From the NCBI GenBank assembly GCA_030622115.1, contig JAUXGN010000007.1, positions 4,547 to 68,546 of the forward strand: a DNA stretch of 64,000 nucleotides. The letters are read 5' to 3'. Position 1 is the first letter of the stretch. Each line of letters begins with the position of its first letter. Shown here piece after piece: positions 1,837 through 39,603 of the stretch. This DNA comes from Candidatus Eiseniibacteriota bacterium. GTDB lineage: Bacteria > Joyebacterota > Joyebacteria > Joyebacterales > Joyebacteraceae. A program made the position numbers and the translations under genes. The notes beneath the pieces are model-generated. The model had not been told where the DNA came from. It saw only the letters and a program-made list of their open reading frames with translations, and ran no database searches.

Positions 1837-3036
1837 TCAGGCGTCGGTGAGGGCTTCTATCGCCGGAAGAGCCTTGCCCTCGAGGACGGCCAGTGATGCT
1901 CCTCCGCCTGTAGATATGTGGCTTATCCGATCGGCAACACCGGCGCGCCCCACGGCGGCGATAGAATCACCACCGCCGACTATGCTGATTGCGCCCGAGT
2001 CGGTCGCTTTCGCGACTGCTTCAGCCAGAGCGAGTGTTCCGCGGGAGAAGGCGTCCAACTCGAACACACCCACCGGTCCGTTCCAGACGATGGTCTTCGC
2101 ACCTGAGATGGCCTCCGAAAAAGCGCGGATGGTCTGTGGGCCTATGTCGAGCCCCTTCCATCCCGCCTCGATCGAGTCGGCGGGAACGATCCTGGTCTCG
2201 GCTTCCTCAGAGATCTCTCGTGCGACGACAACGTCGTTCGGAAGGAGCAGCGTCTTGCCGTCGGCCTGAGCGCGTTTGAGCATACGTGCGGCCGTCTCCA
2301 AGCGGTCGTCTTCGACAAGCGAGTCGCCGATGGACAGTCCCTTCGCCTTCAGAAAGGTGAAGGCCATGCCCCCACCGATCAAGAGGATATCAAGCATCGG
2401 CATGAGGTTCTCAATGACGCCGATCTTGCCTGAGACCTTGGCTCCACCCAGAATGGCCGCGTATGGGCGCTCGGGCGAGGCGGTTGCCTTGGTGAGATTT
2501 CGCAGTTCGTTCTCGATCAGGAACCCCATCGCGCATTCATCCAAGTGGTCGGTTACTCCCACGGTCGAAGCGTGGGCGCGGTGAGCCGTCCCGAAGGCGT
2601 CGTCTACATAGACATCACCCATCCGTGCCAGACGACGGGCGAAATCGGGCTCGTTCTTGGTCTCTCCCGCGTGGAAGCGGAGGTTCTCAAGAAGCGTGAC
2701 GTCCCCGTCGTTCATTTGGGCTACCACACCCTCAGTCGTGTCTCCCACACAGTCCGGGGCCATCGTTACACCTCGGCCGATGAGCTTCGAAAGTCGTTCC
2801 GAGACCGGTCTCAAGCTCAGTTCCGGAATACTCATGCCCTTCGGACGCCCGAGGTGAGACATGAGAACTGCCTTCCCGCCGTGCTTCCTTATGAACTCGA
2901 TCGTCGGGAGAGCCGCCCTTATGCGCGTATCGTCGCCAACGCGGTCGTCGCTCCCGAGCGGGACATTGAAATCGACGCGTGTCAGGACTCGTTTCCCTCT
3001 CAGATCGAGGTCTCTCAGACGCTTCTTTGCTGTCAT
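1837..3036 (-). CDS. pgk: phosphoglycerate kinase
   Basis: 399 aa with RVDFNVP, MSHLGRP and GGGAS motifs. The stop overlaps the RBS region of tpiA. Confidence 0.95.
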   Translation of the reverse strand: MTAKKRLRDLDLRGKRVLTRVDFNVPLGSDDRVGDDTRIRAALPTIEFIRKHGGKAVLMSHLGRPKGMSIPELSLRPVSERLSKLIGRGVTMAPDCVGDTTEGVVAQMNDGDVTLLENLRFHAGETKNEPDFARRLARMGDVYVDDAFGTAHRAHASTVGVTDHLDECAMGFLIENELRNLTKATASPERPYAAILGGAKVSGKIGVIENLMPMLDILLIGGGMAFTFLKAKGLSIGDSLVEDDRLETAARMLKRAQADGKTLLLPNDVVVAREISEEAETRIVPADSIEAGWKGLDIGPQTIRAFSEAISGAKTIVWNGPVGVFELDAFSRGTLALAEAVAKATDSGAISIVGGGDSIAAVGRAGVADRISHISTGGGASLAVLEGKALPAIEALTDA

Positions 3037-3045
3037 GATTCAACC

Positions 3046-4056
3046 CTACCTGCTCGCCACGAGCTTCATCATGTCGACCATGCGAGAGGCATAGCCGGCT
3101 TCATTGTCATACCACCCGAGTATCTTAACGAGGTCGCCGCCGGTCACGGTGGTGAGCCCGCTGTCGAAGATGCAGGAGTGCCTGTCTCCGACTATGTCTA
3201 TGGAGACGAGCGGTTCATCGGTGTAGCGGAGGTAGTCCTTAAGAGGACCTTCCTTCGATGCCTTGAGGAACGCGGCATTGACCTCTTCCGCAGAGGTCTT
3301 CTTCTCCACGTGCACCACGAAATCAACAAGTGATCCGTCAGGTGTTGGAACACGAACCGCCATTCCCTCGAGCCTCCCGGCCATGTCCGGGATGACGAGC
3401 GCAATCGCCTTGGCCGCCCCGGTCGTTGTCGGGATCATGCTGACTGCCGCAGCCCTTGCGCGCCTCAGGTCACTGTGAGGCAGATCGAGTATCTTCTGAT
3501 CGTTCGTATAAGCGTGGATCGTCGTCATGACGCCCTTGATCACACCGAAATTGTTATTCAGTACACTGATCATCGGTGCAGCACAGTTCGTGGTGCAGGA
3601 AGCCGTGGATATGATGTGATGATTATCCGGTTCGTAGAGAGCGTCGTTGACGCCCATCACGATGGAGATATCGATGCCCTTGCCCTTGCCGGGGGCGGAG
3701 ATCATCACCTTGCGGGCGCCGGCCGTCAGATGCTTCGCGGCACCCTCACGAGTGCGGAAGGCGCCGGTCGCCTCGATAACGACATCAACATCGAGCTTGC
3801 CCCAATCGAGCTTCTCTGGATCCCTCTGGGAGAAAACGGGGATGCTCTCACCGTCGACAACGATGTTCCCGCCTTCTACGCTCACTTCCCCATCGTATAC
3901 CCCGTGCACGGAGTCGTACTTGAAGAGGTGTGCCAGGGTCGCCGCGTCGGTCAGGTCATTCACAGCCACGATGTCGAAATCGGGGTTGTGTCTCGCAAAG
4001 CGAAGCACGAGCCGACCTATCCTGCCGAATCCGTTGATCGCGTACTTGAGAGCCAT
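3046..4056 (-). CDS. gap: glyceraldehyde-3-phosphate dehydrogenase
   Basis: INGFGRIGR Rossmann motif and the SCTTNC catalytic-Cys motif. AGGAGG RBS. Confidence 0.95.
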   Translation of the reverse strand: MALKYAINGFGRIGRLVLRFARHNPDFDIVAVNDLTDAATLAHLFKYDSVHGVYDGEVSVEGGNIVVDGESIPVFSQRDPEKLDWGKLDVDVVIEATGAFRTREGAAKHLTAGARKVMISAPGKGKGIDISIVMGVNDALYEPDNHHIISTASCTTNCAAPMISVLNNNFGVIKGVMTTIHAYTNDQKILDLPHSDLRRARAAAVSMIPTTTGAAKAIALVIPDMAGRLEGMAVRVPTPDGSLVDFVVHVEKKTSAEEVNAAFLKASKEGPLKDYLRYTDEPLVSIDIVGDRHSCIFDSGLTTVTGGDLVKILGWYDNEAGYASRMVDMMKLVASR

Positions 4057-4064
4057 GCTTCCTC

Positions 4065-4988
4065 CTAGGCCTTGCCTGCCGAACCGAAAAGCTCGATCTT
4101 GGACTTGACGAGTTCCTTCATGCCTTCACGCGTGGCCCCGAGGATCTTCCTCGGATCGAACACCTCGGGGTTCTCGGCCAGTATCTGGCGCGCGTACCCC
4201 GTGAATGCCAGGCGCAAATCCGTGTCGATGTTCACCTTCGCAATTCCAAATGGGATCGCCTCTCGGATGCTCTCGGGCGGCACGCCCTTTGCCCCAGGCA
4301 GCTCCGCTCCGTACTTGCGAGCAAGATCGAGAACCTCCGGAGGGACTGCCGAGGCGCCGTGCAGCACAAGAGGTACTGACACGAGCTCAGCTATCTTCTC
4401 GAGCCGGTCGATGGCCAGCTTCGCATCTCCCTTGAACTTGTATGCGCCGTGTGAAGTTCCTATGGCAATCGCCAGCGAGTCACAGCCGCTTGATTCCACA
4501 AACTCCGCTGCCTGGTTGGGATCGGTCATGGCAGCGTCGCGCTCGTCCACGGCGATCTCGTCTTCCACTCCCATCAACCTGCCGAGTTCGGCTTCGACAC
4601 TGATGCCCATCGGGTGGGCGAGTTCCACAACCGCCCGCGTCTCCTCGATGTTCTCCGCAAACGGAAGGTGCGACCCATCGATCATCACCGATGTCCAGCC
4701 GTTATCTATGCAACCGCGGATGACATCGAGGTCGGTTCCGTGATCGAGGTGCAGAGAGGCCGGCACGCCGGTCTCGTCCGAGAAGTTCCTGACGAGGTCG
4801 TGAAGGTTCTTGTAGCCGGCATACTTGATGGCCGACTGAGATGTGGCGATGATCACGGGCGAGTTGAGTTCAGCTGCAGCTTCAAAGATAGCGGCCGTGA
4901 TCTCAAGGTTGCTCGTGTTGAACGCGCCAACAGCGTAGCCGCCCTGACGAGCGGGCACCATCAGCTCATTGTTGTCCAGAAGTGGCAT
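4065..4988 (-). CDS. fba: fructose-bisphosphate aldolase, class II
   Basis: YAVGAFN N-terminal motif, LHLDHG, and length typical of class II (Zn-dependent) FBA. AGGAG RBS. Confidence 0.9.
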   Translation of the reverse strand: MPLLDNNELMVPARQGGYAVGAFNTSNLEITAAIFEAAAELNSPVIIATSQSAIKYAGYKNLHDLVRNFSDETGVPASLHLDHGTDLDVIRGCIDNGWTSVMIDGSHLPFAENIEETRAVVELAHPMGISVEAELGRLMGVEDEIAVDERDAAMTDPNQAAEFVESSGCDSLAIAIGTSHGAYKFKGDAKLAIDRLEKIAELVSVPLVLHGASAVPPEVLDLARKYGAELPGAKGVPPESIREAIPFGIAKVNIDTDLRLAFTGYARQILAENPEVFDPRKILGATREGMKELVKSKIELFGSAGKA

Positions 4989-4996
4989 GAGAACTC

Positions 4997-6040
4997 CTAT
5001 CCAAAGAATGTCCTGGCGACCTCATAAAGCTCTGAGTCGACCCGCTTGATACACTCCATCGCGTGGGCCATCTCCACTGGAATGACCTTGTCCCCTTGCA
5101 GACTCGTCATCTTGCCGAACTGACCGGCGTGAATGAGGTCGGCCGCGAGAACGCCGAAGCGTGTGCCGAGGACGCGGTCAAACGCAGTTGGTGTTCCGCC
5201 GCGCTGAGTGTATCCAAGCACGGTCACGCGTGTCTCGTATCCCGTGCGCTCTTCGATCACCTTGGCAATCCTGTTCCCGATGCCCCCGAGGCGGACGTGA
5301 CCGAACGCATCCGTCACCTTGGACTGGACAACGAGCTCTGCCTCATCGTCGTCATTCGTGGGATACTCGGCGCCCTCCGAGACAACGACGATACTGAAGT
5401 TCTTGCCCCTGGCATGACGCTTCTGGATGACCTCACAGACCTCATCGATAGTGAAGGGAACCTCGGGTATGAGGATAAGGTCAGCTCCACCTGCGATGCC
5501 CGACTTGACGGCAATCCAACCCGCGCCTCTTCCCATCACCTCGACCACCACGACCCTGTTGTGCGACTCCGCGGTTGTGTGGAGACGGTCGATCGCCTCT
5601 GTAGCGATGTGCACAGCCGTATCGAATCCGAACGTGAAGTCGGTCCCGTTGATGTCATTATCGATCGTCTTTGGCACTCCGACGAGAGGGAACCCATCCT
5701 GCCAGAGGTGGAGTGCGACGCCCAACGTATCCTCGCCACCGACGGCCACGATGCCGTTCAGGTTGAGTTCAGAGAGCGTCTCCTTGACCCGATCTACACC
5801 GTTCTTCTCTTTGTAGACATTCGTCCTGGATGTTCCGAGGATCGTCCCACCGCGAGGGAGAATTCCGGAGACCTCGTCCAGACCGAGAGGTCGGTGGTCG
5901 TTCTTGAGAACTCCAGCCCAACCGTATCTGAACCCGATCACCTCACCACCATACTTGCTGATCGTCCGTCTGACGATCGCCCTGATAACCGCGTTGAGAC
6001 CTGGGCAGTCTCCTCCACCTGTCAGGATTCCTACCTTCAT
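4997..6040 (-). CDS. pfk: 6-phosphofructokinase, predicted pyrophosphate-dependent
   Basis: MKVGILTGGGDCPGLNAV N-terminus. GGEDT occupies the position of the GGDGS motif, and PKTIDNDI has Lys where ATP-PFKs have Gly; Asp/Lys at these two sites are the classic PPi-PFK signatures. ATG at 6040 is preceded by GGAGGGAGCG; the track start at 6052 is a TTG. Confidence 0.85.
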   Translation of the reverse strand: MKVGILTGGGDCPGLNAVIRAIVRRTISKYGGEVIGFRYGWAGVLKNDHRPLGLDEVSGILPRGGTILGTSRTNVYKEKNGVDRVKETLSELNLNGIVAVGGEDTLGVALHLWQDGFPLVGVPKTIDNDINGTDFTFGFDTAVHIATEAIDRLHTTAESHNRVVVVEVMGRGAGWIAVKSGIAGGADLILIPEVPFTIDEVCEVIQKRHARGKNFSIVVVSEGAEYPTNDDDEAELVVQSKVTDAFGHVRLGGIGNRIAKVIEERTGYETRVTVLGYTQRGGTPTAFDRVLGTRFGVLAADLIHAGQFGKMTSLQGDKVIPVEMAHAMECIKRVDSELYEVARTFFG

Positions 6041-6159
6041 CGCTCCCTCCAACCGCTTCCTGAGTGTTTTCTCAGCGAGTCAATCACAATCAAATCAGAA
6101 TAGTCTCGCTCAGGGCCACTGTCAACCCGTTTTGGTCTCTACGTACCCCTGACAGAAGA

Positions 6160-32175: not shown

Positions 32176-33069
32176 TCACTTGGCGGGTCTGAACAGATAC
32201 TGGGCGCCGCCACGGATGGACGCGGGTTCCAGCAGTCCGAAAACAGATCGGCCGACCAGATCCGCCAGTGTCAATCGATGAACCTTTACAGGCTCGACAA
32301 CTCGCGGGTCGCCCTCGATTCCCCCCATTCTTGCGGCCACAAGCTCTGCGTCCTCAAGAGTCCCGAGAAGATCGACGAGGCCCTCCTTGAGTGCCTGTCG
32401 CCCCGAGAAGATGCGTCCATCGGCTATCTCCCGGACGGTCTCAATGTCGAGGGTTCGCTCCATCGCGACAACCTCCATGAACTGCAAGTGAATGTCGTCG
32501 AGCGTATCCTGGAGGAGCTCACGCTCTTCGGGAGTCATCTGCCGGTTCATAGAGCCCAGATCCTTATACTCGCCGCTCTTGACAATTTCAAAGTCTACGC
32601 CGACCTTGTCGAAGAGCTCCTCGAGATTCATGAAGGACATTATCACACCGATGCTGCCGGTCAGAGTTCCTGGATTGGCCACGATCGTGTCGGCAGGACA
32701 GGCCACGTAATATCCTCCAGAGGCTGCCATTGCTCCCATAGACACAACGATCGGCATGCCGCCTTCACGGAGGGCAACGATCTCCTCGTAGATCTCCTGG
32801 GATGCAGCCACCCCTCCCCCGGGGCTATCGATCCTGAGTACGAGCGCTTTCGTGCCCCCGTCGTCCTCGAAGGATCTGAGATCAGCAATGACCTCGCGTG
32901 AATCGGCGATCACCCCCTCTATCCGCACCAAGCCGATGTGGGCGCCGTAGGTCGGAAAGCGCATCTGCTGTCCGAGAAGCGATTCTATCAAGATCATCGT
33001 GATGAGGAATATGACGAGGAGTCCGACAGTGCCGGCCAGCCACCCCCACAGACAGCCCTTCTTGGTCAT
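32176..33069 (-). CDS. sppA: signal peptide peptidase SppA (36K type)
   Basis: N-terminal TM and ClpP/crotonase-fold motifs SPGGGV and MGAMAASGGYY; 297 aa. Confidence 0.85.
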   Translation of the reverse strand: MTKKGCLWGWLAGTVGLLVIFLITMILIESLLGQQMRFPTYGAHIGLVRIEGVIADSREVIADLRSFEDDGGTKALVLRIDSPGGGVAASQEIYEEIVALREGGMPIVVSMGAMAASGGYYVACPADTIVANPGTLTGSIGVIMSFMNLEELFDKVGVDFEIVKSGEYKDLGSMNRQMTPEERELLQDTLDDIHLQFMEVVAMERTLDIETVREIADGRIFSGRQALKEGLVDLLGTLEDAELVAARMGGIEGDPRVVEPVKVHRLTLADLVGRSVFGLLEPASIRGGAQYLFRPAK

Positions 33070-33098: not shown

Positions 33099-33887
33099 TT
33101 ACGTTTGCTTCGTTCGGCGCCTGACTTCCTCAATGACTGCCTTCACCAGTGCATCATTCGTCGCGTCTGCCGGGTCCGTCGAACCGCTTGCCTCATCGCT
33201 TGAGTTGGGACAGACACCGCAATCGTAGCAGATATCGATCGTTCCAGCTATTCCGAGCTTCTCACGGACGCGAACCAGGTCTTCCAGGTTTGCTCTTGAG
33301 AGAGGTGATGCTCCTCCAAGCTGCCGCGCAGTCAGTGAGACCGCGGCGAAATGCTCAACTGTCTCCATGCGATAGTAGGCTTGGTAGATGTCCTCCCCGA
33401 GTGTGAGAACACCGTGATTCTTGAGCAGCATGGCGCTGTGGGTGTCAATGAATCCGCTGATCGACTGTGAAACCTCCTGTGTGGAGGGGGTTGCGTAGTC
33501 CGCCAGCGGTACGCCGCCCAATGACAGGATGACTTCGGGAAGGATGCACTGCGCCAGAGCCACGCCTGCGACCGCAAACCCTGTGGCTTTTGGCGGGTGA
33601 GCGTGCACAACACTTCCGATCTCGGGGCGGCGGTTGTAGGCGAAGAGGTGCATCCCGAGCTCCGATGTCGGTTCGAGGCGCCCAGCCAGTTTCTGTCCCT
33701 TGAGATTGACGACCACCAGATCGTCTGTTCGGAGGAACCCCTTCGACCGCCCCGTCGGTGTGACGACGATGCGATCACGGTCGATCCGAATACTGAGATT
33801 GCCGTCATTCGAGGCGACGTAGCCACGCTCCCAGATTCTCCGTCCTATCTCAACGATCTGTCGCTCGGCCTCAAACTGCGAGAGCAT
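33099..33887 (-). CDS. class II aldolase/adducin-family aldolase (fuculose/rhamnulose-1-phosphate aldolase-like) with C-terminal encapsulation peptide; BMC signature enzyme
   Basis: Zn-ligand motif VVHAHPP and catalytic Glu in EPTSELGMHLFAY. C-terminal extension CYDCGVCP, an acidic/Ser linker, then amphipathic helix ALVKAVIEEVRRR. The ATG at 33887 lies 5 nt after the BMC-P stop. Confidence 0.85.
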   Translation of the reverse strand: MLSQFEAERQIVEIGRRIWERGYVASNDGNLSIRIDRDRIVVTPTGRSKGFLRTDDLVVVNLKGQKLAGRLEPTSELGMHLFAYNRRPEIGSVVHAHPPKATGFAVAGVALAQCILPEVILSLGGVPLADYATPSTQEVSQSISGFIDTHSAMLLKNHGVLTLGEDIYQAYYRMETVEHFAAVSLTARQLGGASPLSRANLEDLVRVREKLGIAGTIDICYDCGVCPNSSDEASGSTDPADATNDALVKAVIEEVRRRTKQT

Positions 33888-33894
33888 TCTTCCC

Positions 33895-34167
33895 CTATGC
33901 CTCCACGTCGATCCTGTCGACGACTCCCACGATGAGCGTGCGAATCGGCGGATCATCAAGTCCGGTGACCAGTGCTGCAGAGGTGCCCTCGTCAACCACC
34001 AGAACAACCTCTCCGACGCCGGCTCCCACCGAGTCGATCGCCAGGAGCGAATCCCCCAACGGCCTTCGCTCGGTGTCGAGTCTCTCTATCACGAGGAGTT
34101 TGCGCCCCTCGAGTGCAGGGTGCTTTATGGTCGATACAACTTCGCCGATGATCTTTGCGAGAAACAA
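33895..34167 (-). CDS. BMC vertex protein (BMC-P, EutN/PduN/CcmL family)
   Basis: MFLAKIIGEVVSTIKHPALEGRKLLVI...AIDSVGAGVGEVVLV...IVGVVDRI shows the canonical BMC-P pattern; 90 aa. Confidence 0.85.
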   Translation of the reverse strand: MFLAKIIGEVVSTIKHPALEGRKLLVIERLDTERRPLGDSLLAIDSVGAGVGEVVLVVDEGTSAALVTGLDDPPIRTLIVGVVDRIDVEA

Positions 34168-34196
34168 GGAGTCGTCCTCATGGTCGGGTCCACGTG

Positions 34197-34454
34197 TCAG
34201 GTGTTGAGGATCGTCACGTCGTCAACGATACCCAGGATAGCTGCATCCACCGGATTGAAACGTTCCTCCAACGCCTTGCACGCCTCGCGGGATTTCACGA
34301 AGTAGATGAGTTGCCCCGGAGCAGCAGAGACCGTGTCGACGGCGACGAGTGGACGTCCCAGCTCCTGTAGATCGTGTGTCAACGGCTGTACCACCAGAAG
34401 GCGGTATCCCTTGAGGGTCTCCACCTTGACCGTGGCCCAGACGCTACCTATCAC
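34197..34454 (-). CDS. BMC vertex protein (BMC-P, EutN/PduN family), paralogue 2
   Basis: MIGSVWATVKVETLKGYRLLVV...AVDTVSAAPGQLIYF...ILGIVDDV; 85 aa. Confidence 0.85.
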   Translation of the reverse strand: MIGSVWATVKVETLKGYRLLVVQPLTHDLQELGRPLVAVDTVSAAPGQLIYFVKSREACKALEERFNPVDAAILGIVDDVTILNT

Positions 34455-34479
34455 TCTCGCCAGATGCAGTGCGCACCCC

Positions 34480-35028
34480 CTAGAAGACCTTGGATTGGAG
34501 ATCCTTGTGCGGGCGCGGGATCACCACGCTCCGGACCAGGTTCCCGCTCTTCTTGAGAAGCAGAAGCGCGGCTTCGATGGCCGCTTCGACTTGGTAGATG
34601 TCGCCCGTCACACAGAAGAACCCCTTTCCCCCGAGTCCCTTGGCCAGGCGAATCTCGATGAGTCTGATGTGCGCGGCCTTCGCGGCCGCATCAGCGGCCG
34701 CAATGGAAGCCGCTGCCGTGAAAGTCTCCACAACCCCGAGCGCGCTCAGTTCGGCGACATCAGTAGCGCCGAGCAATGCCGGAAAGACGTCGGAGTGGAC
34801 GTGCGGGATGAACAGCGTATCCACGACGACGTCTCCCCCGATCTCGATGCCCCGAGCGAGCGACGCTTCCACAGCCGATACATCACCCGCCACCAGCACC
34901 ATGTACTTCCCGGGGCAGATGGCCGTGGCGTCCAGTATCTCGACCGGAGCGCATTTCGCCATCTCGTCGGCGATGCGTATGCCAAGAGCGATGCTTATTG
35001 TCTCTATGAGGGCTATCGCTTCCCTCAA
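34480..35028 (-). CDS. pduT: PduT-like tandem-domain BMC shell protein (BMC-T) with conserved Fe-S-ligand cysteine
   Basis: 182 aa, two BMC domains. AICPGKYMVLVAGDVSAVEASLARG, VVDTLFIPHVHSDVFPALLG and RSVVIPRPHKDL align closely with Salmonella PduT ([25 protein letters not shown]...RSVIPRPHEAM) including Cys38. Confidence 0.85.
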   Translation of the reverse strand: MREAIALIETISIALGIRIADEMAKCAPVEILDATAICPGKYMVLVAGDVSAVEASLARGIEIGGDVVVDTLFIPHVHSDVFPALLGATDVAELSALGVVETFTAAASIAAADAAAKAAHIRLIEIRLAKGLGGKGFFCVTGDIYQVEAAIEAALLLLKKSGNLVRSVVIPRPHKDLQSKVF

Positions 35029-35092
35029 AGCTCCTCCTTCAAGCGGCGTCTCAGACAGATGCAGCGATCGGATCCGACAAGACCCGTCCTCG

Positions 35093-36424
35093 CTAGTTCA
35101 TGGACTCGATGACGACCTCGACGGGAGTGACGGACGTGACTCCTCCATCGATGCTGGCGTGGACACGCGCCCCAATGCCGCCGGGTCGAATCTCTCCGAT
35201 CAGATCGCCCTCCAGTACCCGCTGCCCCACCTCGACGATCGGTTCGGCCGGGTTGCCGACGTGTTGACTCATGGGCAGCACCACGCGTCGGGTCTCTTGC
35301 GTCCAGTCCTTGAGCGGAGCTGAAACGTCATAGTCCGAAAGACCCAGGCGCTGAACGAGTCGAACCGACGGGATCTGTCGGTACTCTCTCACGCCGTCCG
35401 GGCTGAGGTCCGCTCTGGTGTGAGGGTTCTCGATTCCTCTCAGTGACAGCTCCGCCTTGAGAGCGGCCAGAATACGCCGGGGCTGTATTCCCAGCGGACA
35501 GGCGAAGAGCTCACACATGCCGCACTCGCAGCAGAGGTACGCTGATGTGATGTGTGGGTGGTCCATCTCAAGCGTCGAGTACTGTATCGCTCTTATTGTT
35601 CTGTGAGGGGCGAGTTCGTGTCCGAGAAGGGCACGGGGACAGAGCTCGGTGCAGGCCATACACTGGCAGCATGCCGCCCTGGCAAGCCTGAGCACGTGCG
35701 CCTCTGTCGAGGCACGCGACGCAATCAGCGGATGCTCCTCGGAAAGCACGACGATTCCTCCAACTGTCTTCGTGACCGGTTCCGAGAGATTGTCTACTGC
35801 CAGTCGTCCCATCATGGGGCCGCCGACGATCACAGCGGGATTCTCCACGGTTGCTCCACCACTCGCGGCAACGAGATCTCCAATCGGAACACCTATCGGA
35901 ACATCGAAGGTTGCAGGCCTCTTGACGGCGCCCTGCACTGAGACCAATCGTCTGGTCACTGGACGGCCAAGAACGGCTTCTGCCACGTTGGCCAGTGTCA
36001 TCACGTTGTTCACGACCACACCGATGTCGAGCGGGATGCCTCCCTCGGGAATGACACGACCCGTGAGTTCGTAGACCAGGAGATACTCGTCTCCCGCGGG
36101 GTAGACGTCATCCAGAAACTCGAGTTCGATGCCCGGGAAACGACCAAGCTCCGATGTCAGCGCATCTCCAGCGTCGACGTTCTCTCGCTTGACGGCAATC
36201 ACCGCGCGCGATGCTCCAAGCGAATCTCGCATGAGACTCACTCCCTTGAGCACACGCTCGGGAGCGGTCGCCATTATGATTCCGTCCGAGCGGAGCAGTG
36301 GCTCGCACTCGGCCCCATTAGCGATCATCGTATCGGCCCGCCCAAGAGCCTTCACGTGCGTTGGGAAACCGGCTCCGCCGGCCCCTACGACGCCCGCCTT
36401 CTCTATGGCAGTGGCCGTTGACAT
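35093..36424 (-). CDS. pduS: PduS-like RnfC/NuoF-family Fe-S flavoprotein (BMC-associated oxidoreductase)
   Basis: N-terminal NADH/FMN-binding region (GAGGAGFPT), two ferredoxin-type clusters CCQCMACTELCP and CCECGMCELFACP; 443 aa. Its ATG follows the aldehyde dehydrogenase stop by 1 nt. Confidence 0.8.
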   Translation of the reverse strand: MSTATAIEKAGVVGAGGAGFPTHVKALGRADTMIANGAECEPLLRSDGIIMATAPERVLKGVSLMRDSLGASRAVIAVKRENVDAGDALTSELGRFPGIELEFLDDVYPAGDEYLLVYELTGRVIPEGGIPLDIGVVVNNVMTLANVAEAVLGRPVTRRLVSVQGAVKRPATFDVPIGVPIGDLVAASGGATVENPAVIVGGPMMGRLAVDNLSEPVTKTVGGIVVLSEEHPLIASRASTEAHVLRLARAACCQCMACTELCPRALLGHELAPHRTIRAIQYSTLEMDHPHITSAYLCCECGMCELFACPLGIQPRRILAALKAELSLRGIENPHTRADLSPDGVREYRQIPSVRLVQRLGLSDYDVSAPLKDWTQETRRVVLPMSQHVGNPAEPIVEVGQRVLEGDLIGEIRPGGIGARVHASIDGGVTSVTPVEVVIESMN

Positions 36425-36425
36425 T

Positions 36426-37856
36426 CTAGACGATCCTGAAGTAGTCGACGAGCGTGCAGCGGCGCTCTCGCGTGAATGTTCGCGCCGACGTCAATCCCTC
36501 TCCCGTCGGGCTCGCTATGGTGAACGTGGTGAAGCCTTCTCCACCGAACCCAAGACCGGCGAATGAGGGCCCGTTCTTCACGAAGATCGAGCAGTCCATG
36601 ACTCTCGCCATGCGAGAGAGGTGCTCGATGCTCTTCGAATGCATGACCGCCGTATGCCGGTTGCCGCGCTCGACACGCCTCGCGAGATCTATGGCTTCGA
36701 TCGCGGTCTCCACGATTACCATGGGAACGACAGGCATCATCTGTTCAGTCCAGACGAGGGGATGGTCCACGTCGGCCACGAAAAAGGCCAATCTTGTTCC
36801 AGCGGGACAGGAGAGACCTGCCTCCCTGAGGATCACATCCGCATCCCGGCCCACGAGTTCCCGTTTCAGGGGGGAACTGCGTTCTGCCCCCCGGTCTTCC
36901 TCGAGAACCGTCTTCGTCAGACGCTCGATAGCCTGTCCCTTGACCTCTAGTGCGCCCGCCGCAGAAAGCGCCGCGCGCAGTCTGTCTGATACGGCGCGAA
37001 CGGCGATTATCTCCTTCTCAGCAATACAGACGATGTTGTTGTCGAAGCTCGCGCCCGCGATGATGTCCCGCGCCGCCTGGTCAACGTCGGCTGTCTCATC
37101 GACCACCACCGGGGGGTTGCCCGGTCCGGCTGCTATGACCTTCTTCCCGCTCTCCATCGCCGCCCTCACCACCGCTGGGCCGCCCGTCACGACGAGAAGC
37201 TTTATGTCGGAGTGCCGCATGAGCGCTTGTGCCGTGTCTATTGAAGGCTCACTGACTGCGTACAGAAGCGCCCGGGGACCTCCCGCCGCGCTGATGGCGC
37301 GATTCAGAATGTCGATCGTCGTGAGGGAGACAACGCGTGCTCCCGGATGCGGATTGAACACGACAGCATTGCCGCCTGCGATCATGCTGATTGCGTTGTT
37401 GATGATGGTCTCGGATGGGTTGGTCGATGGGGTGATGGATCCGATCACTCCGTACGGCGCACGCTCCACAATCGTAAGCCCGTGGTCTCCAGAGAAAGCC
37501 ACGGGCCTCAGATCTTCCGTGCCCGGAGTGCGTTCTGCGACGAGGACGTTCTTCTGTTCCTTGTCCTCGATGCGCCCGAGCCCTGTCTCTTCTACCGCCT
37601 GCTCCGCGAGCGACCGCGCGTTCTCGAGAGCGGCCAAGCGCATTGCCTGAATGATCCCCTTGCGGAGTTCGAGCGAACTCCCGATCAGCTCGCGCTGGCT
37701 CGTCCACGCAGCCCGAACAGCGTCATCCATCGCCTCGAGAATCCCGCGACCGTCAAAGGCCGGAGGCGCCTGTCTCGGCGTCGCTTCCCCAGTGGATACC
37801 AATTCACGGACGACACGCTCGACTACCGTCCTGATGGCAAGCTCTTCATTCGCCAT
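36426..37856 (-). CDS. CoA-acylating aldehyde dehydrogenase (PduP/EutE family) with N-terminal encapsulation peptide
   Basis: ALDH fold with catalytic Cys in NNIVCIAEKE. N-terminal amphipathic helix EELAIRTVVERVVRELV, then linker STGEATPRQAPPAFDG; 476 aa. Confidence 0.9.
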   Translation of the reverse strand: MANEELAIRTVVERVVRELVSTGEATPRQAPPAFDGRGILEAMDDAVRAAWTSQRELIGSSLELRKGIIQAMRLAALENARSLAEQAVEETGLGRIEDKEQKNVLVAERTPGTEDLRPVAFSGDHGLTIVERAPYGVIGSITPSTNPSETIINNAISMIAGGNAVVFNPHPGARVVSLTTIDILNRAISAAGGPRALLYAVSEPSIDTAQALMRHSDIKLLVVTGGPAVVRAAMESGKKVIAAGPGNPPVVVDETADVDQAARDIIAGASFDNNIVCIAEKEIIAVRAVSDRLRAALSAAGALEVKGQAIERLTKTVLEEDRGAERSSPLKRELVGRDADVILREAGLSCPAGTRLAFFVADVDHPLVWTEQMMPVVPMVIVETAIEAIDLARRVERGNRHTAVMHSKSIEHLSRMARVMDCSIFVKNGPSFAGLGFGGEGFTTFTIASPTGEGLTSARTFTRERRCTLVDYFRIV

Positions 37857-37875
37857 GTGTCTGCCGATCCTCTAT

Positions 37876-38163
37876 TCACTTGTCGTAGAGGAGCTTCCCG
37901 CCGACCTCGATGGAGTCGACGATAGCCATGATGACGGCATCGGCAGGTCTGTCCTTCGTCAGCGAGGTCTGGCGCGCCGAGCTTCCGCTCGCGTAGAGAA
38001 CGATCTCTCCCTCACCAGCACCGACTGCGTCGATCGCAACGACGAACGCTCCCGTCTCGCTGCCATCCAGTTCGACCTGTTTCACGATCAAGAGCTTCGT
38101 GCCTGTAAGCTTGTCGTCCTTCTGGCTGGCGACGATTGTCCCGACGACCTTGCCGATAGTCAT
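37876..38163 (-). CDS. BMC vertex protein (BMC-P), paralogue 3
   Basis: ATG at 38163 with AGAGGTGG RBS gives MTIGKVVGTIVASQKDDKLTGTKLLIV...AIDAVGAGEGEIVLY...IMAIVDSI. The longer track ORF adds 21 non-conserved residues. Confidence 0.8.
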   Translation of the reverse strand: MTIGKVVGTIVASQKDDKLTGTKLLIVKQVELDGSETGAFVVAIDAVGAGEGEIVLYASGSSARQTSLTKDRPADAVIMAIVDSIEVGGKLLYDK

Positions 38164-38276
38164 AGTCCACCTCTGCCGTCCGTGTAGCACCACACAACCC
38201 AGACCAAGGCCTGTGGGCGGCAACAAATCAGTTCGCTCACACCCGGTCTGTGCGTCGTCCTGACTGGTGATGGTCT

Positions 38277-38573
38277 CTATTTCGCCTTCGATTTCGCTGT
38301 CTTGCCGATCGGCAGCGCATCCTCAAGACTCGAGTGAGGCTGTGGTATGACGTGCGTGGAGATAAGCTCGCCCACCTTGCTGGCAGTTGCCATTCCGGCA
38401 TCCACCGCTGCGCGCACCGCAGCGACGTCGCCGCGAACGATGGCTGTCACGTACCCCCCGCCGACCTTCTCATAGCCGACGAGCCTCACCTTGGCTGCTT
38501 TCACCATGGCATCGGATGCTTCGACCATTCCGATAAAACCCCTGGTCTCGATCATTCCGAGGGCTTCGCCCAT
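38277..38573 (-). CDS. BMC hexamer shell protein (BMC-H, PduA/EutM family)
   Basis: [57 protein letters not shown] is the canonical BMC domain; 98 aa with a K-rich C-terminal tail. Confidence 0.9.
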
Positions 38574-38636
38574 TTCACCCTCCCGCGAACGGATCAGATC
38601 TCATGAAGACGCTTGAGGCCGCTATCCTACGCGGCC

Positions 38637-38933
38637 CTACAGCATCGTTCCTTCCAGCATCTCGTGCGGCGCTGGTATGACATGATACGAAACAAGTTCA
38701 CCGACCTTGCCGGCAGCCGCAGCCCCGGCGGCGACAGCAGCCTTCACTGCGCCCACATCCCCTCGGACGATAGCGGTAACGTACCCGCCACCGATTCTCT
38801 CGTACTTCGTCAGTGTGACGTTGGCGGTCTTGACCATTGCGTCAGCGGCCTCTACGAGGCCAACCACTCCCTTGGTCTCAACCATTCCAAGCGCAAGTCC
38901 CGGCAATCGTTTCACCCCCTCGCTTAAGTCCAT
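38637..38933 (-). CDS. BMC hexamer shell protein (BMC-H), paralogue 2
   Basis: [55 protein letters not shown] at 38906 preceded by GAGGGGGTG would give the canonical N-terminus [13 protein letters not shown]; the ATG at 38933 is an alternative. Confidence 0.85.
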
Positions 38934-38937
38934 TCAC

Positions 38938-39603
38938 TCAGGAATGGAGAATCTCCACGGTCGTTGGCAATCCTACGCCGGCCGCATTTGCATTGTCGGT
39001 ATCAATGTGAAACTCGAGAAGCGCGCTCTTGGAGACACGGATCAGGATCTTCTCGAGCACCAAGGATGCTGATCCCGGGAACCGGACCCTGACAAGATCT
39101 CCATCCGTCACCCTGTGGATCTCAGCATCACGCTCAGTCATATGAATGTGACGCATCGCACGGATCGCCACATCACGCAGATGAACCGTTCCGGCCGGTC
39201 CCACAAGCGTGAGCGTCTCGCTTCCCACCAGATCTCCGGATCGACGTATAGGCGGTTCGATTCCCAATCTGACGGCATCGGTGGCGGAGACCTCGACCTG
39301 CGTGTATGTACGCAACGGTCCCAGTACACGGACACGCTCGATTGCACGCATTGACCGGCCCACGAGCGTTACGGTCTGCTCGGATGCAAACTCCCCCGGC
39401 TGTCCCAGATCGGTGCGCCGCGTGAGTTCAAACCCCTCACCGTACAGTCTGTCCAGTACGCCGCGCGAGATGTGGATGTGCCTTGCCGAGACCGAAACCG
39501 GGATCGTCGCCGTGGCCGTGACCTGATCTTGACCGGATCCGCCCAGCCTACGGATGACTTCCTGTGCGATTCTTTCGACTTGGTCCAATCTTCCTCCCTG
39601 CAC
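38938..39603 (-). CDS. pduL: PduL-type phosphotransacylase with N-terminal encapsulation peptide
   Basis: Two PduL repeats with the ARHIH motif (VSARHIHIS...). N-terminal amphipathic helix LDQVERIAQEVIRRL plus a GGSGQ linker; 221 aa. First gene of the BMC operon. Confidence 0.85.
   Translation of the reverse strand: MQGGRLDQVERIAQEVIRRLGGSGQDQVTATATIPVSVSARHIHISRGVLDRLYGEGFELTRRTDLGQPGEFASEQTVTLVGRSMRAIERVRVLGPLRTYTQVEVSATDAVRLGIEPPIRRSGDLVGSETLTLVGPAGTVHLRDVAIRAMRHIHMTERDAEIHRVTDGDLVRVRFPGSASLVLEKILIRVSKSALLEFHIDTDNANAAGVGLPTTVEILHS

Follow-up and report, generated by a model that had tools for sequence, protein, structure and literature searches.

Several of the most widespread types of bacterial microcompartment (BMC), namely PVM, PVM-like, GRM5, ACI, MIC4, MUF2/3, and HO, have a class II aldolase as their signature enzyme. 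Of 23 class II aldolases associated with BMCs, 21 have been described as carrying a C-terminal encapsulation peptide (EP), and the published linkers are 23–81 aa long (PMC4594438). According to the same 2015 survey, aldolase linkers are conserved in neither composition nor sequence, and a table in it gives 5.5% cysteine in aldolase linkers versus 0–2.8% in others (PMC4594438). The C-terminal extension is noted repeatedly in entries of the 2021 BMC catalog (Sutter 2021, PMC8217296), and it has so far been treated as a featureless linker followed by a targeting helix. Here we analyze the class II aldolase encoded at the end of a microcompartment operon within a 64,000-nucleotide stretch of Candidatus Eiseniibacteriota DNA (contig JAUXGN010000007.1; this whole stretch is referred to below as the window). 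We found that the first part of this enzyme's extension is a cluster of cysteines, which approaches the catalytic Zn ligands in conservation and is tied to a core cysteine near the active site.

Two described systems serve as points of reference. In the aldolase FucA, the residues responsible for metal binding, base catalysis, and phosphate binding have been assigned, and Tyr113' has been called essential (PMC11841055). The published PVM locus is defined by DeoR, acetate kinase, an Ldh/Mdh-type dehydrogenase, an aldolase signature enzyme, and a BMC-P-rich shell, with hosts among the Planctomycetes or Verrucomicrobia (Axen 2014).

Results

A Four-Cysteine Pattern Is Conserved in Close Homologs

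An initial annotation of the gene, made from the sequence alone, pointed out a CxxCxxCP motif behind the catalytic core, likened it to half a ferredoxin motif, held it to be foreign to FucA/RhaD aldolases, and allowed that it might be coincidental. We aligned the protein with 120 homologs that share 50%–85% identity with it. CxxCxxC was present in 109 of the 120 and CxxCGxC in 108; C220, C223, G224, and C226 were each at least 90% conserved, and a glycine followed the second cysteine in 114 sequences. At the family cysteine frequency of 1.6%, chance would produce CxxCxxC 0.001 times in 262 aa, and in light of the observed conservation, coincidence is effectively refuted. The concern that orthologs might lack the triad proved equally unfounded, and FucA itself has no cysteine knuckle, as the annotation would lead one to expect. 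The likeness to ferredoxin holds for the conserved CxxCGxC. It does not extend to the proline after the third cysteine, which is not conserved (the position is mostly D, E, A, or G), and a Pfam scan of the tails alone gave no match to a metal-binding model and no Fer4 match for the window tail; a tail variant with a doubled triad gave only a sub-threshold Fer4_9/zf-CXXC match.

The protein has only one other cysteine, C114 in the catalytic core, and this residue was conserved in 119 of the 120 homologs. Exactly four cysteines, all in these four columns, were found in 60 of 119 family members. The sequences thus suggest that C114 probably turns what looked like half a ferredoxin motif into a four-ligand site.

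The Cysteines Co-occur across Distant Lineages

A broader set of 441 sequences, made up of representatives at 50% identity, 80 genome loci, and the PVM family, was grouped into 115 clusters at 60% identity. A cysteine just after the conserved G212 was present in 50 of the 53 clusters that have C114 and in 26 of the 62 that lack it (p = 8e-10; p-values for the cluster set are indicative only, because the sequences are related, one search pattern was biased toward C114, and no phylogenetic correction was applied). CxxC was found in 26 of 53 clusters with C114 versus 6 of 62 without. Among the triad-bearing clusters, at least four tail cysteines occurred in six of seven that lack C114 but in only two of 18 that have it (p = 0.001), and examples of the compensating fourth cysteine include CxxCxxC-x5-C, CxxCxxCxxC, and a doubled triad. 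The replacement of C114 by a fourth tail cysteine is suggestive of a four-ligand metal site.

The triad recurs at 31%–47% identity in Eisenbacteria, Firmicutes, Latescibacteria, Anaerolineae, Myxococcota-type, and non-BMC sequences. In an alignment of non-BMC, Eisenbacteria-type, HO-type, and PVM aldolases, again at 31%–47% identity and in a set partly chosen by motif, C114, C220, and C223 are as invariant as the Zn ligands. All of 120 planctomycete (Isosphaeraceae) PVM aldolases have C114, together with an invariant NCDLCGNS in which serine takes the place of the third cysteine. The aldolase of an HO-like locus (L087) has C114 and CEQCNAC and no PduS nearby; that of Moorella has CTGCGAC and a proline at position 114; and several Latescibacteria and Ignavibacteria have C114 and a single tail cysteine only.

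Two other arrangements were seen. Aldolases of Oscillospiraceae/Clostridia (L031, L052, L054, L066, L076, and L077) carry GC(K/R)xCPNxGTxxCxC (GCxxC-x7-9-CxC) entirely within the extension and have tyrosine at position 114; this four-cysteine motif looks like a zinc ribbon. The ACI-type aldolases (L017–L065, Vicinamibacterales/Acidobacteria) have Ala114 and the motif APAPIC-x10-20-CQ(V/A)(V/L)xAP, followed by the targeting helix.

Short homologs of 233–234 aa terminate right after the knuckle (e.g., ...LCEQCGICPQEEEK); they have C114 and lack the linker and helix. Two short triad-bearing homologs (L088 and L089) are encoded in non-microcompartment contexts, beside genes for a ROK kinase and a CN-hydrolase or beside PGI. 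Because these EP-less non-BMC proteins keep both C114 and the knuckle, the cysteine site appears to be a trait of the enzyme subfamily rather than of the targeting module, with the linker and targeting helix appended behind it; the same proteins rule out the triad as a component of the encapsulation machinery. The comparison also indicates that the cysteine cluster is older than the acquisition of the targeting peptide. The initial annotation had placed the cluster ahead of a C-terminal encapsulation peptide, and the cluster is not part of that tail.

Aligned Positions Place the Cysteines near a FucA-like Active Site

By sequence and predicted fold, the gene product is a class II aldolase of the FucA-like kind; its Zn ligands are intact, and it lies outside the FucA equivalog. 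Residues 9–183 matched Pfam Aldolase_II (PF00596; E = 2.8e-46, 158.2 bits, cut-off 22.2). H95-A-H97, H158, and E76, the counterparts of FucA H92, H94, H155, and E73, were invariant in the alignment of 120 homologs, in accord with the annotation of a class II core with an intact HxH zinc motif, and the phosphate-binding residues N30, T45/G46, and T74/S75 (FucA Asn29, Thr43/Gly44, and Ser71/Ser72) were invariant or nearly so. An AlphaFold2 (AF2) model had a confident core (predicted local distance difference test [pLDDT] score >90; mean pLDDT 86.9), and a Foldseek search with this model matched FucA structures (E ~1e-18, target TM ~0.9). No NCBIfam equivalog cut-off was reached (TIGR01086, 72.9 versus 400; PRK06833, 105.5 versus 264), and the position of the catalytic Tyr113' of FucA is occupied by Leu116, which is leucine in 118 of 119 family members; for these two reasons we describe the protein as a FucA-like aldolase without assigning a substrate. 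Across the whole aldolase clade, the Tyr113' position is leucine or methionine and Glu118 is invariant, and Glu118 may act as a substitute general acid/base.

C114 lies two residues before the Tyr113' position, and the triad comes directly after the segment equivalent to the mobile C-terminal tail of FucA, which carries Tyr209'. In FucA, Tyr113' and the C-terminal tail are both contributed by the same neighboring subunit and flank the aldehyde pocket. Closure of C114 with the triad is therefore sterically plausible as judged from these aligned positions, and the four-cysteine site may be inter-subunit.

The Tail Has the Features of an Encapsulation Peptide

EPs have been defined as terminal amphipathic helices of ~15–20 aa that follow a poorly conserved linker, are found in BMC-locus homologs only, and are both required and sufficient for recruitment into shells (Kinney 2012; Aussignargues 2015). 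In the AF2 model of the window aldolase, a helix at residues 240–260 (pLDDT 77–88) is preceded by coil (residues 225–238, pLDDT <50). The 120 homologs share the helix pattern D/E-D/E-D/E-[ILV]-V-x-x-V-[LVI]-x-x-[VLI], in which hydrophobic residues at i, i+1, i+4, i+5, and i+8 (a/b/e/f/i positions) are 89%–100% conserved and are preceded by three acidic residues; unlike this terminal segment, the linker is free in length and composition. The N termini of the phosphotransacylase (PTAC; LDQVERIAQEVIRRLGG) and of the acylating aldehyde dehydrogenase (AldDH; EELAIRTVVERVVRELVS) of the same operon show the same [VI]xx[VI][VIA]xEVxR pattern as the aldolase tail. The extension is present on aldolases of BMC loci and absent from the non-BMC homologs L081, L083, and P0136 (locus L088).

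The window tail thus fits the terminal-helix, variable-linker, and BMC-only parts of the definition, and on sequence and model it is a predicted C-terminal EP of a known kind, with nothing new in the peptide itself. This is the organization that the initial annotation had expected. The strings that it quoted are all present in the translation (CYDCGVC; PNSSDEASGSTDPADATN; and DALVKAVIEEVRRRTKQT, which with the stop codon spans 33099–33155), and its "18-aa" helix needs a small correction, as the string given there has 17 residues.

The Operon Combines an Aldolase with PduS and PduT

The aldolase is the last of ten genes listed in transcription order in Table 1. The tandem BMC-T protein could be aligned over its whole length with PduT structures and retains the pore cysteine (Cys38, in ICPGK); it adjoins a PduS-type flavoprotein (the two genes span 34480–36424, −), and there is no alcohol dehydrogenase in the operon, which suggests that NAD+ may be regenerated by electron export through PduS and PduT. 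The flavoprotein (35093–36424) has its RnfC_N barrel domain at the C terminus and not at the N terminus. The open reading frame (ORF) of the EutN-family BMC-P at 37876–38226 (−) is listed with a TTG start 21 codons before the Pfam domain, and the methionine at residue 22 (window position 38163) is the more likely start.

Table 1. Features of the Aldolase Gene and of Its Operon in the Window
Feature	Position	Strand	Basis and remarks
Class II (FucA-like) aldolase gene	33099..33887	−	ATG-started ORF, 262 aa + stop; last gene of microcompartment operon
Catalytic core, residues 1–217	33237..33887	−	Zn ligands H95, H97, H158; base E76; phosphate site N30, T45/G46, T74/S75
C114, core cysteine, proposed fourth ligand	33546..33548	−	Translation AQCIL; aligns with FucA Ile111, two residues before Tyr113'
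Cysteine knuckle C220-Y-D-C223-G-V-C226	33210..33230	−	Translation; family consensus C-x-[SDE]-C-G-A-C
Acidic/Ser-rich linker, residues 227–244, PNSSDEASGSTDPADATN	33156..33209	−	Translation; length and sequence vary among homologs
Predicted C-terminal EP DALVKAVIEEVRRRTKQT, amphipathic helix	33102..33155 (stop to 33099)	−	Translation; AF2; family pattern
PTAC	38938–39603	−	First in transcription order; Pfam, NCBIfam
BMC-H	38637–38933	−	Second gene; Pfam
BMC-H	38277–38573	−	Third gene; Pfam
BMC-P	37876–38226	−	Fourth gene; Pfam EutN
Acylating AldDH	36426–37856	−	Fifth gene; Pfam, NCBIfam
PduS/RnfC-type Fe-S flavoprotein	35093–36424	−	Sixth gene; Pfam, NCBIfam
PduT-type tandem BMC-T, pore Cys38	34480–35028	−	Seventh gene; alignment to PduT structures
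BMC-P	34197–34454	−	Eighth gene; Pfam
BMC-P	33895–34167	−	Ninth gene, then aldolase; Pfam

The gene order is kept in the relatives L001–L007, including flanking glycosyltransferase genes and a downstream S49 peptidase gene. In the window, this S49 (SppA-like) peptidase gene (32176–33069, −) lies on the same strand, 29 bp after the aldolase gene; it holds the same position in distant relatives (L001, 10827–11738; L003, 10827–11720) and may share a transcript with the microcompartment operon. By aldolase, the closest named genomes are those of Candidatus Eisenbacteria, at 59%–60% identity.

The initial annotation had referred the aldolase to the PVM type, and the locus does share with PVM a class II aldolase and three EutN/CcmL genes. 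The planctomycete locus L085, which fits the published definition, carries DeoR, three BMC-H, acetate kinase, and an Ldh-type dehydrogenase and has no PduS; the window locus has PduS and a PduT with a pore cysteine, and none of DeoR, acetate kinase, or an Ldh-type dehydrogenase was found in 33099–39603 or its flanks. The planctomycete (Isosphaeraceae) aldolase family P0265, at 37% identity, is among the most distant of 150 representative matches. As L085 and the published definition carry genes that the window locus lacks, the PVM label does not hold: judged by gene content, the locus is not PVM proper, and its best match is to the MIC7/MIC4 types of the 2021 catalog. In the entries of that catalog, MIC7 is listed for Eisenbacteria and Latescibacteria (PMC8217296, Supplementary Data 2), and the MIC7/MIC4 descriptions share with the window locus a BMC-P triplet, a 182-aa PduT-type BMC-T with a pore cysteine beside PduS, and an N-terminal EP on AldDH (PMC8217296). 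The MIC4 entry also lists PTAC and a pfam00596 aldolase; it differs in having acetate kinase, which is absent from the window locus (PMC8217296). The window operon and its syntenic relatives L001–L007 carry PTAC, PduS, and an aldolase with an EP, and the catalog's description of MIC7/MIC4, as far as these entries go, may be incomplete.

The 20 large ORFs of the window that we scanned encode housekeeping, glycolysis, and polysaccharide-synthesis functions; no fucose or rhamnose catabolic genes were among them, and no sugar isomerase or kinase that might feed the microcompartment aldolase was seen in them. A glycolytic cluster lies at 1837–6052 (−; PFK, class II FBP aldolase, GAPDH, and PGK), and the rest of the scanned window includes genes for MreB/MreC/PBP2/RodA, FtsK, and polysaccharide synthesis.

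Discussion

We hold with moderate confidence that the window protein is a signature aldolase in which a catalytic core is joined to a tail-capping four-cysteine metal site (a tetrathiolate holding structural Zn or Fe), followed by a linker and an encapsulation helix. The core would use the metal, base, and phosphate residues of FucA, with leucine in place of Tyr113. The CxxCG knuckle and C226 (C220/C223/C226) would join C114 of the core in a predicted mononuclear tetrathiolate that holds Zn or possibly Fe, and this site would pin the start of the tail onto the 108–118 loop beside the inter-subunit active site. Behind the disordered acidic linker, the amphipathic helix would bring the tetramer, along with PTAC and AldDH, into the shell, and the aldolase would act on a sugar phosphate as the signature enzyme of an aldehyde-processing microcompartment. 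From the conserved residues, the distribution of the four cysteines, the compensatory cysteines, the predicted helix, and the operon context we infer that a metal is bound, which metal it is, that C114 and the triad close in space, and that the enzyme is actually encapsulated.

A glycine after the second cysteine is a hallmark of metal knuckles. We favor a tetrathiolate because this glycine is present, because there are four ligands of which the fourth relocates, because sister variants resemble zinc ribbons, and because cytoplasmic homologs keep the site. Several observations weigh against this reading. AF2 monomers leave the knuckle unordered (mean pLDDT 49 for residues 221–230, and 53 in an EP-less homolog), and no Pfam metal-binding model recognizes the tail. 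The full set of four cysteines is not universal, as many lineages hold only C114 and one tail cysteine and the third position is serine in PVM. Eleven of the 120 close homologs lack CxxCxxC, and the substrate is left unassigned both by the equivalog cut-offs and by the 20 large ORFs, which include no fucose or rhamnose genes.

In at least two of the exceptions, P0009 and P0019 (L001/L002, 10001–10795), two triad cysteines are missing, and the proteins retain C114 and one tail cysteine (…ARQVCVTAPE…). P0019 is encoded in an operon that is otherwise identical to triad-bearing ones. A link between triad loss and a change of locus is ruled out by this case, and P0019 provides a useful natural control for triad loss. 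With 11 of 120 homologs lacking CxxCxxC, and with P0019 encoded in an operon that is unchanged in other respects, the cysteine site appears from these sequences to be dispensable in some lineages.

Other explanations of the cysteines have to be weighed against the same data. A serious, if unlikely, alternative is that they hold a redox-active Fe-S cluster, for example a [4Fe-4S] cluster of the 3+1 kind as in ferredoxins or FNR, and connect the aldolase to PduS/PduT by electron relay, docking, or O2/redox sensing. C-x2-C-G-x-C corresponds to the first three ligands of a ferredoxin and a remote fourth cysteine exists; the operon encodes a PduS-type flavoprotein with two [4Fe-4S] clusters and a PduT with a pore cysteine; triad lineages include strict anaerobes such as Moorella; and the aerobic planctomycete PVM loci, which have serine at the third position, have no PduS. 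In the genome loci, PduS adjoins 12 of 12 triad-bearing aldolases versus 9 of ~66 without the triad, an association that is confounded by the shared ancestry of locus types. It can serve as a statistical lead only, because the HO-like locus L087 and the non-BMC cases L088 and L089 have the triad without PduS nearby and rule out a strict tie. Entries in the Sutter 2021 supplement add cysteine-rich extensions on other BMC cargo in Fe-S-rich loci. There is, however, no counterpart of the Cys-Pro that supplies the fourth ferredoxin ligand, the proline after C226 is not conserved, the window tail matches no Fer4 model, and the CxxC-x7-9-CxC of Firmicute relatives has the look of a zinc ribbon. It is decidedly unlikely that the cysteines act instead as a metal-free thiol/disulfide switch, in which C114-C220 and C223-C226 disulfides clamp the tail over the active site and the enzyme is active in only one redox state, for example after encapsulation. 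Such a switch would fit the smallest unit conserved in many lineages, which is the pair of C114 and the first tail cysteine, and the total cysteine counts outside PVM, which are mostly two or four. The mobile tail of FucA contributes Tyr209' to the active-site pocket, as seen in mutant entries of the Protein Data Bank, the catalytic Tyr113' of FucA is not conserved in the aldolase clade, and the CcmM gamma-CA of the carboxysome is a precedent for an oxidatively activated enzyme. The conserved glycine and the compensatory fourth cysteine are better suited to a tetrahedral metal site, and the same four cysteines are kept by non-BMC cytoplasmic homologs; furthermore, CoA-SH and NADH are present in the metabolosome lumen, which is not known to be oxidizing. 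Position 114 does not covary with position 211, the equivalent of Tyr209 (p = 1.0), which speaks against the switch and also eliminates C114 as a stand-in for that tyrosine.

The view that the triad is coincidental or lineage-specific and has no function can draw on the triad-less close homologs, including P0019 in its unchanged operon, and on the lack of order in the AF2 model. It is hardly tenable given the chance expectation, the retention of the motif at 50%–85% identity and its recurrence in distant lineages, and its location where neighboring linker residues vary freely. For the helix, the question is whether it targets the shell at all, and we consider it very unlikely that it is merely an oligomerization/aggregation helix or a membrane- or partner-binding one, with the aldolase encapsulated otherwise or not at all. 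The hydrophobic moment of the single helix was not significant when compared with shuffles (p 0.09–0.35), a further point against our preferred reading, and extensions of this kind are listed for only about one-third of HO-type aldolases in the Sutter 2021 supplement. Set against this are the confinement of the extension to BMC-locus aldolases, the pattern that it shares with the PTAC and AldDH peptides of the same operon, and the fit of this pattern to the published definition (PMC4594438). Two of the doubts that accompanied the initial annotation were that the tail might be disordered and that it might not be amphipathic; the first is answered by the AF2 helix and the second by the family; the tail helix is convincing as amphipathic only through the family-wide pattern and not through the single sequence.

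The four-cysteine metal site that we favor has practical consequences. A construct cut at the end of the "core" would lose three putative ligands, and the four-cysteine pattern can serve as a sequence marker for the aldolase clade. The pattern also provides a concrete metal/redox hypothesis for PvmN-type enzymes. That C114 and CxxCGxC form a redox-active Fe-S cluster or a redox switch that couples the aldolase to the PduS/PduT conduit or to the redox state of the lumen is rather unlikely. If it were true, the aldehyde-producing first step would be gated by redox state or encapsulation, the signature enzyme would be connected to the poorly understood PduS/PduT system, and metabolosomes that have PduS/PduT but no alcohol dehydrogenase would have a so far undescribed means of balancing reducing equivalents.

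Full-text literature searches, whose coverage did not extend to the original PVM paper (Erbilgin 2014), found no mention of the aldolase cysteine motif, and phrase searches of the type descriptions in Sutter 2021 (PMC8217296) returned nothing on aldolase cysteines. The nearest described enzyme is FucA, with which the window aldolase shares the fold, the Zn ligands, the glutamate base, the phosphate-binding residues, and presumably a tetramer with inter-subunit active sites. FucA stops at residue 215 with a mobile tail that carries Tyr209; it has no cysteine knuckle, linker, or helix, and has Ile111 at the position of C114 and Tyr113' where the window aldolase has leucine. The PVM aldolase is of the same Pfam family, is likewise encoded by the last gene after a BMC-P pair, and has a linker, an EP, C114, and the CxxCG knuckle. 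It differs in its identity of ~40%, in the serine that replaces the third cysteine (CDLCGNS), and in several other cysteines that are conserved in PVM.

The predicted site resembles known mononuclear tetrathiolate sites. The structural Zn motif of alcohol dehydrogenase is CxxCxxC-x7-C, and rubredoxins and zinc ribbons have the CxxCG knuckle; the aldolase shares with them the knuckle glycine, the CxxCxxC spacing, and the number of cysteines, and its family includes the variants CxxCxxC-x5-C and CxxC-x8-CxC. It differs in that its fourth ligand lies ~106 residues upstream in the core, in having no second knuckle, and in that its site is a predicted one. Compared with the ferredoxin motif CxxCxxCxxxCP and with 3+1 clusters such as that of FNR, C-x2-C-G-x-C with a remote fourth cysteine is similar, as is the setting of an operon that encodes PduS and PduT, but the window tail has neither the CP ligand nor a ferredoxin fold around it. 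Cysteine clusters in terminal extensions also occur in other BMC proteins, and PduK carries a C-terminal cysteine motif. Those listed in the Sutter 2021 supplement are on the MIC3 AldDH (four cysteines), the MIC6 FAD oxidoreductase (4xCys), and a MUF2 protein (six cysteines). As far as these entries describe them, such clusters are often encoded in loci with Fe-S shell proteins and are BMC-specific, in contrast to the aldolase site, which is also found in non-BMC homologs and would use a ligand from the catalytic core. The window aldolase thus belongs to a known class and is unremarkable within it, apart from a four-cysteine site that is widely conserved and has apparently been overlooked.

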